Assembly (NCBI RefSeq): GCF_003334315.1
Contig: NZ_QOWR01000045.1
DNA length: 41,110 bases
Origin: Escherichia coli
Lineage (GTDB): Bacteria > Pseudomonadota > Gammaproteobacteria > Enterobacterales > Enterobacteriaceae
Direction: 5' to 3' (one strand)
Both the position numbers and the translations under genes were made by a program. Below the pieces are notes generated by a model. It was not told the DNA's origin and did no database searches. It was given only the letters and a program-made list of their open reading frames with translations. The stretch's first letter is position 1, and each line of letters starts with the position of its first letter. Shown here in pieces: positions 12,568-33,489 of the stretch.

Positions 12568-13792
12568 TTATGGTATTATATTCTGATAATGATTTGATAA
12601 GCGAATTCTGTTGCCAGATGGTATTTCTATTTCCACCCCATAATTTATATCTTTTTCATTAGGCAGATCTCTCTTTAAATAAAAGGGGTATGAAATCTTT
12701 TCGGGTTGAAGTGTCTCGTAATGAAATGCTATGAATTCATTTTTAGACATTGTTGCCCATTTTTGAATTTTATTGTATAGAGAGGGTGTTGTAAACTCTT
12801 GAAGTTGTTTATAACATATTTTTTTTGAACTCTTGCTTATATTTTAATATGTCATCAAATGAAAGACTCACTACCTTTGCCTCTAAGAAATCAATTATTC
12901 TCGAAGCAATTTCCGCTTTCGCGCGTAAAGAGTTGTCATTAATAGTTAACAATGTAGAAAACAAGCCATTGATTTGTTTGTCAAGATGCTGTTCATATTT
13001 ATGTAGTTTGGGGATGGGATTTTCCTTGTGTGAAAAAATAGTGTTAAATAAATTTGCGTCAGTGAAATTTATATTAAGTAGATCTTCAAAATAAAAATTT
13101 GATAAGGTTAGGACTAGCCTGGACATATCTTGCCCTGTCATGTTGAAATCAATAAAGTCGCATCCAGCAAGGGCTTCCATCCTATTTTCATTTTCACTGT
13201 GCTCAATATACAGCTTCGCCATTTTTAAGTACAAGCTTTGAATGTCTCTTATATCAGTTGGTAAGTCAGCTCGTTGCCCAGCAAAATTTTTATTATCGGA
13301 AGAAACGGTTTGAACACTGAATATTTCGGGTATTCCTTCTTCTACGAGAATTTTAGTTATGATTGGATTGTTGGGTTCTGGATTAACGACAACAATGATT
13401 TGACATACAGAATCCTTATCCTTTTCGTATCTAATGTTATGAATCTGATTAAGTATTGATTGTGTCTGTTGCGTAAGTGGTGTCGAACTTATCGTTTCAA
13501 TGTTATTAATAAGACTTACAAGTTGAACCACAACTTTTGAGTAGTCTGCATTTGTATATGTGGTGTTCGTGTGGCATGCATTAATTTGTTGGAGTTGTTG
13601 TTGCGCTAAATCAAATTGTTCAGGATTGTATCCTTCTCCAGAGAATGTGGAATTAATGGGTTGTTGTTCTTCCCAATTATCACAAGGCCACTTCGGTGTG
13701 TCTGGCGTTTTAACATTATCGGTATTTGTTGTGCAGTTATAAATATCGCCGTGATATGTATTTATTATACCTGGGGTAAAGTCAATTGACAT
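12568..13792 (-). pseudogene. yhiS: yhiS-like AT-rich gene encoding a Q/N/T-rich protein with a pentapeptide-repeat-like segment; split into 327-aa and 60-aa ORFs by a +1 frameshift at an A8 tract
   Basis: Two consecutive out-of-frame minus-strand ORFs (13792..12809 and 12750..12568). The second frame is open upstream through the A8 run at about 12819-12826 (minus-strand AAAAAAAA), so removing one A yields a continuous reading frame of about 407 codons. Position between arsC and slp matches where I remember yhiS. No IS element is present. Confidence 0.55.
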
Positions 13793-14371
13793 AACATTCC
13801 TTATTCATCATCTGTTTTATGCTAAGGTTTTTAAATTGGATAATTAGAACAGGAATGGATTTTCTTCTACACACAATAAATATAATGCGTTATATCTTCC
13901 TGATATAATTACCTTTAAATTCCCTTTCATTTCCACCCGGTAATATTTGTGTATAAAAAAAGGCAGTGATAGTATCGTAAAGGAAAACGTTAACAACTAT
14001 CAAAAAGCGCTCATTTTAAAAAGTTATTTTGTTCTCCGATAGTGTGTGAAGTAATATTTTTGTGATGTTTTAGATGTGTAATAATGAACCAGGTTAAAGT
14101 GTATTTAAAAATGTGTTGTATTAGCGACTGAAATCTGCCTTTTAAAAAGGAGGAGGGTACTGAGACAAAGAGTCATTGCTTCTCCGATAAAATGTCAGAG
14201 AAGCATGATTACGTGGTTATTGTCTGTTGATGACTTGTTGACCGAGCCGTCATCATTCTCAATGCATTAGTTAAATCATTTGTGATTTTTAAGGATTATC
14301 CTGTCTATGATTTTCTACTTAGAAGGATATGGCACTAACTATGCATCTTATAGTTTACTGCTGGCATCTAT

Positions 14372-15373
14372 TTAAAATAGCAATTGAGTCAAATAGCCCA
14401 TCAAGATAGCCATACCTAATATAACCGTCAGGAATGCAGCTATCATCGGCATTCTGAACATTGATTTAAGTAATATCACTTCCGTCAGGCTTGCGCCGGC
14501 ACTGCCGATGATTAATGCCATTAATGCTCCCAGACCCATTCCTTTTGTCATCAGAACAGATGCCAGAGGGATAACTGCCTCAGCCCGGATATACAGCGGA
14601 ATACCGACAACGGCGCTTAATGGGATGGCGAAGGGATTATCTGCTCCTGCATGAGCGGCAATCCACGCTGAGGGAATAAAGCCATAAATAAAAGATCCTA
14701 TTAATACTCCTAACAAAAGATATGGCAGTACATCTTTAAACTGTTGCAACGCATCTTTGGTGGCTAGTTTTATGGGATTAATACTTACTACAGCTTTGGT
14801 ACTGCAACAGGTAACTACGGGGTTCTCAATGGCTTTAGCCGCTGGACTACAACAACTCACTTTTATGGGTGTATATGTCGTTCCCGGCGAAGTTTTTGCT
14901 GGAGCACAACAATTTGCTGATGAGCTTTTACTGGCAATGATATGACGTTCAAACCCCAGAGAATCCAGGATAATACTGGCAAGAACGGAGACGCCGGCTG
15001 CGATAATCGCGTACAACAAGGTGACTTTCCAACCAAAGGTCATCCACATTAGTCCGACGATAATGGGATTAAGTAATGGTGAAACAAATAAAAAAGTGAG
15101 AGTCGGACCAAACCCGGCTTTCGCTGACAACAATCCACGTAACATGGGTATTGTCGAGCAACTACAGAACGGGGTAACGGCTCCCAACAGAGCAGCCAGG
15201 AGATAGCCTCTCCCTTTTCTGGCCCCCATCATCTGCTGGATTTTATGGTCTGGCACCTTTTGTCTTATCAGGCTGACACCGGCACTAATCACTATAAACA
15301 GCAACGAAAGCTCGACGGCGAGAAACACAAACATCTCTGCGGCATCTTGCAGCATCGCAAGCCAACTACTCAT
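14372..15373 (-). CDS. ArsP-like (DUF318/COG0701-type) cysteine-rich inner membrane permease
   Basis: Track ORF of 337 aa (14372..15385); I favour the ATG at 15373 (MSSWLAMLQ...) because of a GAGG RBS 6 nt upstream. The protein is polytopic and hydrophobic, has a TPFCSCSTIP motif and a central loop with three CC dipeptides (ANCCAPA, SCCSPA, TCCSTKA). Confidence 0.7.
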   Translation of the reverse strand: MSSWLAMLQDAAEMFVFLAVELSLLFIVISAGVSLIRQKVPDHKIQQMMGARKGRGYLLAALLGAVTPFCSCSTIPMLRGLLSAKAGFGPTLTFLFVSPLLNPIIVGLMWMTFGWKVTLLYAIIAAGVSVLASIILDSLGFERHIIASKSSSANCCAPAKTSPGTTYTPIKVSCCSPAAKAIENPVVTCCSTKAVVSINPIKLATKDALQQFKDVLPYLLLGVLIGSFIYGFIPSAWIAAHAGADNPFAIPLSAVVGIPLYIRAEAVIPLASVLMTKGMGLGALMALIIGSAGASLTEVILLKSMFRMPMIAAFLTVILGMAILMGYLTQLLF

Positions 15374-31500: not shown

Positions 31501-31882
31501 TTTAAACTCCTCAGGTATCCCTGCTAATATTGAAATATGCATTAATGATAATTTCATCCTGTTAATATAATGACGAGATATCATTAAAGACAAATGCATA
31601 GCATAACTATAGCGGGGTTTACTTTGCAGAGCGCTACTTTTCAGCGTTCAAAAGGCCATGATAAATAAAGATTTATCCTAAGATTAATTCTTATGCTGTT
31701 GTTTTTTACAATTATCTTCCAGGGAGGGATTATTCTTCATTATTTGGTAAAAGACCGGATAGTCTCGGTGCTTAAAATCAGCGAACATATAAGTATTATT
31801 ATTTTATATCGTCGTAAATCTGTTTTTCAGACAAGTATCATTTATTTTGTTACAAACAATTCAAAAATATCACAGGTTATTT

Positions 31883-33489
31883 ATGAAAGCAATTGACAAT
31901 CAGATTAGAAACATCTCTTCAAGCCATCAAGATAAGCATTTAGATAAAGTTAACAGTCATCAACACCATGGCAAGGTTGATAAAACACATCGTGCAAAGA
32001 TAGTTGAATTTGATAAACTGGATAATGATTCGCAAATAGATAACGATTTTGGCCTGCATATCATCTATTTCCTGCAACATGGTCACTGGAAGGTAAATGA
32101 TCGTAGTCACCAGATGGAGAAAGTATGGTTTTATAATAGTGAACCTTCTATAGATATTCAAGAATATAATAGATTCGCCGACAATACTACTGATACGTTT
32201 ATCTTTACAATTATACCAGACAATAACCATGTGTTAAAATTATCGTCTCCCATTACCGTTACTGTTGAGTGTAAGGGCGGTTATTATTTTATTAATTCCT
32301 CTGGAGATAAATCAGATATAATTTATAAAGTTGATGGGCTTTCTATCATAGCGAGAAATTTCTTTACTCTTCTTAGTGGTAATTTCAAACCTGACTGGCG
32401 TTGGGATGTCTCTAAAGAGACGTTTACTAAGGAAAAGTTTGATAGCTATGTTAAATCTGTGTTTTCAAAAATAGACTTCTATAAACAGTGTGGTGTGATT
32501 AACCCACAGAATGCCAACACGGCTTATTTTGGCGATACAGATGGAAGAGTAGGCGCTGTACTTTATGCATTGCTCGTTTCAGGGCATATAGGCATCAGGG
32601 AAAAGGGTTGGAGTTTATTATGTGAATTATTAAAACACGAAGAGATGGCTTCATCTGCATACAAACATAAAAATAATAAAGTGCTCTACGATTTATTAAA
32701 TACGAGAGACATGATCTTGAATGAGTTGCATCAACATGTTTTTTTAAAGGACGATGCGATAACCCCTTGTATCTTCCTTGGGGATCATACAGGCGATAGA
32801 TTTAGTACTATTTTTGGTGATAAATATATCCTTACTTTGCTAAATTCTATGCGAAATATGGAGGGTAATAAAGATAGCCGTATTAATAAAAATGTCGTCG
32901 TTCTGGCTGGAAATCATGAAATCAATTTTAATGGTAACTATACTGCACGACTAGCAAATCATAAACTCTCTGCCGGTGATACGTATAACTTAATTAAAAC
33001 GCTCGATGTTTGTAATTATGACTCAGAAAGGCAAGTTTTAACCAGTCATCACGGAATAATAAGAGATGAAGAAAAAAATGTTATTGTCTCGGTGCTTTGC
33101 AGGTTCCATTTAATCAGATGAAAAATCCTACTGATCCTGAGGAATTAGCCAATATTTTTAATAAAAAACATAAAGAACACATGGATGATCCTCTATTCCA
33201 TCTAATCCGAAGCAATACTTTGAAACCCACACCTGTATATGCTAATTATTTTGATAACACTACTGATTTCAGACCAGCACGTGAACGTATCTTCATATGT
33301 GGGGAGACACTCAAAGGTGAAGACCCCAGCAAATACATTAGACAAAAATATGGGCATCATGGGCCCGGGGTAGATCATAATCAACAATTTGATAATGGTA
33401 TTATGGGGCTAAATTCCCTGAAGGAAGCACGTGATAAAAATAATAAAATAATTTATTCCTCAGGGCTTAGTTGTTTTCAACCACATTAA
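31883..33489 (+). pseudogene. yhiL: yhiL: DUF4049-family paralog of YhiJ, split by a frameshift at about 33096
   Basis: Track ORFs 31847..33121 and 33097..33489 are out of frame but collinear with YhiJ: FGDTDGRVGAV, FLGDHTGDRFS and LAGNHE in the first, NPTDPEELANIFNKKH in the second. A T3 run at about 33096-33098 is the likely indel site. Start assigned to the ATG at 31883 with an AGG RBS. Confidence 0.65.

Follow-up and report, generated by a model that had tools for sequence, protein, structure and literature searches.

We report here that the frameshifts in the genes yhiS, yhiM and yhiL of an Escherichia coli contig are very probably genuine mutations of three different ages, the yhiL lesion being old, the yhiS lesion belonging to a sub-lineage and the yhiM lesion being recent. 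The window, i.e., the whole stretch of DNA analyzed, is the entire contig QOWR01000045.1 (41,110 nt) of the draft assembly GCA_003334315.1. Three of its 34 annotated CDS are broken, each by one single-base indel, and comparison with strain NT1F31 showed that the remaining 31 are unbroken, in agreement with the earlier note, which had described the core genes as intact. The three frameshifts are independent, as their sites, genes and population frequencies all differ. The finding is an ordinary one and this kind of event is already known: two of the three alleles are common inherited pseudogenes, and one of these is common to K-12. The features concerned are the following:

12568..13792, minus strand: yhiS allele, frameshifted pseudogene between slp and the ars genes, divergent from K-12 yhiS
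12819..12826, minus strand: yhiS A8 tract (T8 on the plus strand), +1 insertion; A7 in the intact allele (alignment to FORC_042)
30449..31500, minus strand: yhiM (DUF2776 inner-membrane protein), frameshifted, one base deleted
30973/30974, minus strand: yhiM deletion junction; gene strand ACGCTG in the reference, ACCTG in the window
31883..33489, plus strand: yhiL (DUF6860 and DUF4049), frameshifted pseudogene, lesion as in K-12
33072..33078, plus strand: yhiL A7 tract, -1 deletion; A8 in the intact allele
33751..35373, plus strand: yhiJ, intact paralogue of yhiL

Accuracy of the Assembly

The earlier note had proposed, as one explanation, that all three indels were homopolymer errors left over in a long-read assembly. 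Two of the three do lie in A/T runs of 7–8 bases within AT-rich DNA. However, 69 independent complete genomes have the identical yhiS allele and 1001 the identical yhiL allele, which already refutes this explanation for both, and the yhiM indel lies outside any run and is reproduced in Logan assemblies. Across 41 kb, the window differed from NT1F31 by 16 SNPs and 1 indel, and against its relatives it presented 1 indel for 7–8 SNPs. None of the 179 homopolymer runs of at least 5 bases had a private length change relative to these relatives, and the sole private indel of the 41 kb is that of yhiM. As expected from a short-read assembly, the contig is part of a draft and breaks at repeats, both of its termini lying in repeated genes (gadA and yhhI, ISEc1-family). 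The window showed neither a set of private indels nor numerous run-length discrepancies. Because no run length is private and the yhiS and yhiL alleles occur in many other genomes, the long-read explanation was rejected, and we regard its probability as negligible.

A mutator strain, a mutagenized strain and an error-laden assembly were also considered. The private SNPs located in intact CDS of the window are all nonsynonymous (4/4). These readings were set aside because the relatives carry similar private loads (8 SNPs in NT1F31; 4 SNPs and 1 indel in HS30-1), because the HdeD variant of the window is common in other lineages (429 blocks), and because the SNP at position 32509 also occurs in VTB97420v. 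We consider the contig accurate, so that the other calls made in the window are trustworthy, and yhiS, yhiM and yhiL deserve annotation as real pseudogenes.

The Deletion in yhiM

All three one-base frameshifts listed in the earlier note exist, but two of them, in yhiM and yhiL, had been mis-described. In yhiM, the lesion had been placed in a G/C run. On the gene strand, TTACGCTG became TTACCTG, i.e., a single G between two C's was lost (CGC to CC), and the ancestral site contains no homopolymer. The deletion shortens the protein from 350 to 182 aa, 176 native residues and then 6 aberrant residues preceding the stop. PF10951 is listed as the Pfam family of the truncated product.

The deletion allele was present in none of the 4220 complete genomes having this stretch (5426 complete E. 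coli genomes searched), and it was not found in GTDB species representatives or in JGI metagenome contigs. This absence, together with a gene devoid of secondary mutations, would fit a sequencing or assembly artefact affecting yhiM alone, with yhiS and yhiL being real. We nevertheless hold such an artefact to be improbable. The typical systematic error sites of sequencing platforms are homopolymers and methylation motifs such as GATC/CCWGG. The yhiM site is not of this type, because it has no homopolymer and no GATC or CCWGG motif, and an error at a methylation motif was rejected on the same basis. Also, the exact 182-aa product, translated from the annotated GTG start, is on record in Logan assemblies of SRA reads (the 215-aa ORF version is not). 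The Logan contig SRR1122540_196 (13.7 kb), which occurs in 4 samples, is 100% identical to positions 27118–40857 of the window, deletion included, which indirectly supports the presence of the alleles in the reads; although assembled independently, it may rest on the same data, as GCA_003334315.1 may derive from one of those runs. Finally, the other private SNPs of the lineage recur in separate runs (SRR3951468 and SRR25039417-20).

YhiM has been reported to be a GABA exporter acting at mildly acidic pH (PMC6604978). The earlier note had counted it among poorly conserved genes, a description that does not hold, as all the diverged strains examined have one and the same annotated protein, WP_001028905.1. 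The gene appears to be a conserved yet dispensable acid-stress gene, and its deletion would be a recent and sporadic event, outside any repeat and confined to the narrow lineage of the source. The loss of YhiM is the one strain-relevant consequence of our observations, and it may have a slight effect on how this lineage copes with acid.

The yhiS Allele

For yhiS, the lesion had been correctly assigned to the A8 tract: relative to strain FORC_042, one A was added to the A7 at positions 12819–12826. The protein is shortened from 407 aa, the length of the intact form WP_001594569.1 of FORC_042, to 327 aa. PGAP labels the identical sequence as frameshifted in GS04, NT1F31 and HS30-1. The window allele shares 86–89% identity with the common and K-12 alleles.

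The A8 allele occurs in 69 complete genomes, i.e., 69 of the 406 with the window-type allele match the 80-mer exactly, the A8 carriers sampled being those nearest to the window sequence; in the sampled non-matching genomes among the 406, the same site spans 79 nt. Among public assemblies, 950 index blocks also contained the truncated product. The A7 to A8 insertion probably occurred a single time, in the phylogroup-A-like sub-lineage that includes the source. In other lineages, yhiS has been broken separately by a T7 to T6 change, a one-base loss in an A run, a CC insertion, IS5, IS1 and a 5′ deletion.

The yhiL Allele

In yhiL, the earlier note had pointed to a T run. The lesion is instead the shortening of A8 to A7 at positions 33072–33078 (codons 397–399), and the TTT at 33096–33098 is merely the overlap of two ORFs. 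Translation would end after 412 instead of 535 aa, codon 413 being the first stop both in the window and in the K-12 derivative RP437. The intact 535-aa form is WP_000643701.1, with A8 (strain 219). PGAP labels yhiL as frameshifted in RP437, GS04, NT1F31 and HS30-1. A literature search on yhiL as a pseudogene and on DUF4049 returned nothing useful.

Of 3668 complete E. coli genomes, 1001 (~27%), K-12 derivatives included, contained the A7 allele as an exact 80-mer match; it is common across the species and probably old. It is carried by at least 5 haplotypes, which are 4–9% diverged, and short recombination patches, rather than repeated slippage, could partly account for this distribution, as in EC9952 and S40 the ~300 nt surrounding the tract are identical to the window haplotype. 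Both tract lengths were observed on one haplotype: the tract is the sole difference between EC9952 (A7) and S40 (A8) over 1589 nt, with 0 substitutions. The two states are also interleaved among alleles at least 99.8% identical to that of the window, and in the haplotype of O103 strain RM8385 the run is interrupted by substitutions.

Such observations raise the question of whether the A7/A8 tracts of yhiL, and of yhiS, are contingency-type reversible switches, the polymorphism being maintained since each state is sometimes advantageous. The coexistence of the two lengths on one haplotype, their interleaving, the number of A7 haplotypes and the interrupted run in RM8385 all speak for it. However, tracts subject to high-frequency phase variation typically count at least 9 bases, and the 7–8 bases found here are short. 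The OFF state is not kept repairable either, as some A7 alleles contain further stops, at codon 42 (strain 120899) and codon 362 (RMDEC332), which indicates irreversible decay. Moreover, yhiS is broken at differing sites and by IS elements across lineages, as neutral loss predicts. Domain searches assigned no function to either protein: YhiL matched only DUF6860 and DUF4049 in Pfam and nothing significant in NCBIfam, and YhiS had no Pfam or NCBIfam domain, with nothing significant in the latter. Finally, the K-12 loci are listed among H-NS-bound promoter islands producing little full-length RNA, which include yhiL, the yhiL/yhiM intergenic region and arsC/yhiS (PMC3661553). Taken together, a maintained reversible switch seems to us quite unlikely.

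A weaker version, limited to yhiL, is somewhat less improbable, although doubtful: its A8 could be a species-wide mutational hot spot, repeatedly slipped to A7 and perhaps reverting, in which case the locus would not be a pseudogene peculiar to K-12 but would display a slow ON/OFF polymorphism of contingency-like type. If true, about one E. coli genome in four, on many different backgrounds, would have the DUF6860/DUF4049 protein switched off.

Mechanism and Selection

We favor genuine mutations, and for yhiS and yhiL the likeliest mechanism would be slipped-strand mispairing during replication of long A/T runs. Runs of this kind are concentrated in these AT-rich genes (34–35% GC). Roughly 1–2% of the CDS of an E. 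coli genome are frameshifted, and three broken genes out of 34 represent a modest excess. This excess arises because 4 of the 6 coding homopolymers of at least 7 bases in the window fall in yhiS, yhiL and yhiJ, three genes accounting for 13% of the coding bases. Selection on yhiS and yhiL appears weak enough for null alleles to persist and recur; judging from the frequency and diversity of these alleles in the genomes compared, it is probably relaxed. Also, yhiS and the genes from yhiN through yhiJ were deleted in the genome-reduced strain DGF-298 (PMC10652928), and in two close relatives, HS30-1 and GS04, ISKpn26 interrupts yhiJ, which is intact in the window.

The truncated proteins have probably lost their function. 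An alternative is that the frameshifted genes still yield full-length protein, thanks to ribosomal frameshifting or to slippage during transcription of the A runs. The lesions are located inside the A8 run of yhiS and the A7 run of yhiL, the downstream frames remain open in the window, and in yhiL the frame would be restored if ribosomes shifted by -1 on A_AAA_AAT. However, efficient slippage of RNA polymerase occurs on runs of ~9 bases or more, and both tracts are below this threshold. For yhiS, a +1 shift would be required, which is disfavored on A runs, and further stops accumulate in other lineages. Expression of full-length proteins in this way therefore appears very improbable.

The second explanation proposed in the earlier note, i.e., a specific loss of island genes by this strain, is correct in that all three genes are real pseudogenes. 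It does not stand as a statement about this strain, as the lesions of yhiS and yhiL go back to distant ancestors and only that of yhiM is lineage-specific. Our data rather illustrate a textbook picture, in which AT-rich dispensable genes near the acid fitness island, H-NS-bound in K-12, decay independently across many E. coli lineages, by homopolymer slippage and IS insertion.

Comparison with Known Systems

The window resembles assemblies affected by long-read (or 454/Ion) homopolymer errors in that single-base indels in A/T runs split its ORFs. It differs from them in that its alleles are found in dozens to a thousand independent assemblies, without private run-length changes. For example, the corresponding region of the truly noisy assembly GCA_051691725.1 presents 5 gaps in 21 kb and several core genes that are split; arsB, dctR and mdtF are among the genes broken.

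With loci subject to slipped-strand mispairing, whether pseudogenes or phase-variable contingency loci, the window shares a one-base change in an A run that is recurrent on differing backgrounds. In contrast to the contingency loci, its tracts are short (7–8 bases) and progressive decay is seen, without evidence of rapid reversible switching.

In K-12, yhiS likewise lies between slp and the ars genes, with insH listed next to it, and the gene is inactivated in both strains. Nevertheless, the window allele is a different one (~89% identity over the alignable part), and K-12 yhiS is interrupted by an IS element (IS5), whereas in the window the gene is broken by slippage that added one base to an A tract.

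The closest likeness concerns the yhiL pseudogene of K-12, which has the same gene, position and one-base deletion from A8 to A7. The derivative RP437 aligns with the window gap-free across 4 kb, and the two yhiL sequences differ by 3 substitutions in 1607 nt, that of the window being otherwise the K-12 allele. As to whether the A7 of K-12 and that of the window require separate origins, one event would suffice for the three-site haplotype network, and we therefore draw no inference on origins within this class. With both the deletion and the K-12 haplotype background present, the yhiL of the window is the K-12-type pseudogene allele.

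Three Frameshifted Genes

The annotation of the near-identical E. coli relative NT1F31 was transferred to the window, and 31 of 34 coding sequences were found intact. The three broken ones are a yhiS allele, yhiM and yhiL.

Broken coding sequences of the window
12568-13792 (-): yhiS allele, frameshifted; product ends after 327 aa (407 aa in the intact gene of strain FORC_042)
30449-31500 (-): yhiM, frameshifted; product ends after 182 of 350 aa
31883-33489 (+): yhiL, frameshifted; product ends after 412 of 535 aa

An earlier note had attributed one-base homopolymer frameshifts to these genes. 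All three frameshifts are real, but the one in yhiM lies outside any homopolymer and the one in yhiL had been assigned to the wrong run. The yhiS lesion was correctly placed in an A8 tract: relative to the FORC_042 gene, the sole frame-changing difference is one added A, which turns A7 into A8 at 12819-12826. For yhiM, where an indel in a G/C run had been proposed, a lone G flanked by C's is missing at 30973/30974 with no homopolymer change, and the gene strand reads TTACCTGTTACG in the window vs TTACGCTGTTACG in all relatives. The T run at 33096-33098, held responsible in yhiL, is merely the overlap of two ORFs; the lesion, compared with the intact gene of strain 219, is the loss of one A, which shortens an A8 tract to A7 (33072-33078).

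Accuracy of the Contig

The window is the entire contig QOWR01000045.1 (41,110 nt) of the draft NCBI assembly GCA_003334315.1. It runs from the 3′ end of gadA through gadX and the acid fitness island (gadW, mdtFE, gadE, hdeDAB, yhiD, dctR, slp), then the yhiS locus, an arsP-type permease with an ArsR/SmtB regulator, arsCBR, gor, rlmJ, prlC, rsmJ and dtpB, followed by uspAB, pitA, yhiN, yhiM, yhiL, yhiJ, yhiI, rbbA and yhhJ, and terminates within yhhI. The contig begins within the last ~100 nt of gadA, a paralogue of gadB, and stops ~280 nt inside yhhI, an ISEc1-family pseudogene. Both ends thus fall in repeated genes, which suggests the breakage pattern of short-read assemblies. One further feature of this stretch is a gene pair:

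14372-15776: permease (Pfam ArsP_1) and divergent ArsR/SmtB regulator, between yhiS and arsC

Compared with K-12, the two genes appear to have been inserted, because arsC and yhiS are neighbours in the K-12 table of a published paper. The window also has an intact copy of the small gene yhiY (35563-35676); in NT1F31, a SNP at the site matching window 35676 (A to G) abolishes the stop codon and PGAP calls the gene partial.

The suggestion of a long-read assembly with residual homopolymer errors was rejected on the basis of contig-quality counts. Over the whole 41 kb, the window differs from NT1F31 by 16 SNPs and one indel, that of yhiM, and none of its 179 homopolymer runs of at least 5 bases (including 17 of at least 7) has a length private to the window with respect to the compared relatives. 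The private load of the window falls inside the range of its relatives: 8 SNPs and the yhiM indel are specific to it in the comparison with three relatives, while NT1F31 has 8 private changes and HS30-1 has 4 together with one A-run indel. By contrast, assembly GCA_051691725.1 (JBDIFK010000003.1) shows 5 gap openings against the window in 21 kb, with arsB, dctR and mdtF called split, and is a real case of the indel-noisy assembly that had been feared.

Across the four genomes compared, homopolymer length was seen to differ at just one other place, the gadX-gadW intergenic A8 run (1313-1320). It is A9 in HS30-1, a difference that could be real or an error of that assembly. The A8 run of gadW (2171-2178) is intact in the window. 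Four window-specific SNPs fall in intact genes (8930, 16277, 20643 and 38379, in hdeD, arsC, rlmJ and rbbA), all four being nonsynonymous. They are probably ordinary polymorphism, since other E. coli lineages commonly carry the HdeD variant (429 index blocks), and the sample is too small for a conclusion.

The yhiM Deletion

The exact 182-aa truncated YhiM product is recorded in Logan, a set of assemblies built straight from public sequencing runs. Contig SRR1122540_196 (13,740 nt), found in 4 samples, agrees with window 27118-40857 at every base, and so shares the deletion in yhiM, the A7 tract of yhiL and SNPs 31670, 32509 and 38379, which are specific to the lineage. The contig was assembled independently, although its reads may be those used for GCA_003334315.1. 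Run SRR3951468 matches window 15834-26335 exactly, SNPs 16277 and 20643 included, and the ArsC variant of the lineage occurs in four further runs.

The deletion was found in none of the 4220 complete genomes having the stretch, nor in GTDB species representatives or JGI metagenome contigs. All diverged strains examined have one and the same annotated YhiM protein, WP_001028905.1. The loss of yhiM, whose GC content is 47%, is a sporadic event specific to the lineage of the source and different in kind from those of yhiS and yhiL.

YhiM is also cut short in other E. coli assemblies, by independent frameshifts that precede the window lesion by a few codons or lie elsewhere (proteins P0014, P0004, P0002 and P0009), and partial YhiM occurs in Shigella records; therefore, yhiM is sporadically inactivated in several lineages. 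In the chicken isolate VTB97420v, a sil/pco copper-silver resistance island lies directly beside yhiM (locus L015, 1-17905), and yhiL is 100% identical to that of the window.

Spread of the yhiS and yhiL Alleles and Apparent Recurrence at the yhiL Tract

Judged on population frequency, the three frameshifts differ in age. Alleles of yhiL and yhiS were counted as exact 80-mer matches among complete genomes having the stretch, the yhiL 80-mer being centred on the A7 tract. The yhiL A7 form was matched in 1001 of 3668 genomes, K-12 derivatives among them. On its sequence, the window yhiL is the K-12 pseudogene allele, because it aligns without gaps with that of the K-12 derivative RP437 and PGAP labels the K-12 gene 'frameshifted'. 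The yhiS A8 form was matched in 69 of 406 genomes with this allele, and the remaining ones, as sampled, all span 79 nt, corresponding to A7. When whole yhiS genes were compared in a spread sample, the genome nearest to the window was the one with the longer (A8) form; a single origin of A8 would fit. The truncated 327-aa product occurs in 950 blocks of public assemblies. The proposal that the strain is specifically losing island genes holds as far as the pseudogenes are real, but two of them were inherited, one being the K-12 allele.

The yhiL A7 tract is present on at least 5 haplotypes, 4-9% apart (window/K-12, MY203L1, EC9952, RMDEC332 and 120899), and EC9952 (A7) and S40 (A8) are identical across 1589 nt save the tract. 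Further stop codons were gained by two A7 alleles. This pattern fits repeated slippage at a hot-spot tract and subsequent decay, although short recombination patches could partly account for A7 on several haplotypes. Slippage could also be countered: in the EHEC strain O103 RM8385 (locus L018), the run at the position of window 33072-33078 is broken up by three substitutions, which could stabilise yhiL, and the gene is intact.

Composition and Recurrent Decay

The GC content of yhiS and yhiL is 34-35%. Together with yhiJ, they account for 13% of the coding bases of the window and contain four of its six coding homopolymers of at least 7 bases. A published list of K-12 'promoter islands', which are bound by H-NS and give almost no full-length RNA, includes yhiL, the stretch between yhiL and yhiM, and the arsC/yhiS region (PMC3661553). 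Segments deleted from the genome-reduced strain DGF-298 include yhiS and yhiN through yhiJ (PMC10652928).

Decay of yhiS and yhiJ is recurrent across E. coli. A T7 to T6 change breaks yhiS in EcWJ and 203740, the latter having a CC insertion as well; loss of one base in an A run shortens the O157:H7 gene, annotated as a 371-aa protein; IS1 interrupts that of QL57EC, and yhiS is partly deleted in many genomes. The IS5-like element ISKpn26 splits yhiJ in HS30-1 (L011 34027-36848) and GS04 (L012 34080-36901).

About 777 additional bases were seen inside the matched segment of the relatives Z1323PEC0011/13, QL57EC, ES6 and JX21CE35, this excess being annotated in QL57EC as an IS1 insertion in or next to yhiS. 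A break near the yhiS A tract was noted in Z1323PEC0013, and an IS903B between hdeB and yhiD in GS04 (L012 9698-10666).

A classical contingency locus is an unlikely reading of yhiL, given its short tract and the secondary lesions. The K-12 yhiS differs from that of the window in being interrupted by IS5. The three frameshifts are nothing new in kind; the only mildly novel aspect is that the A8/A7 polymorphism of yhiL is so widespread and apparently recurrent.
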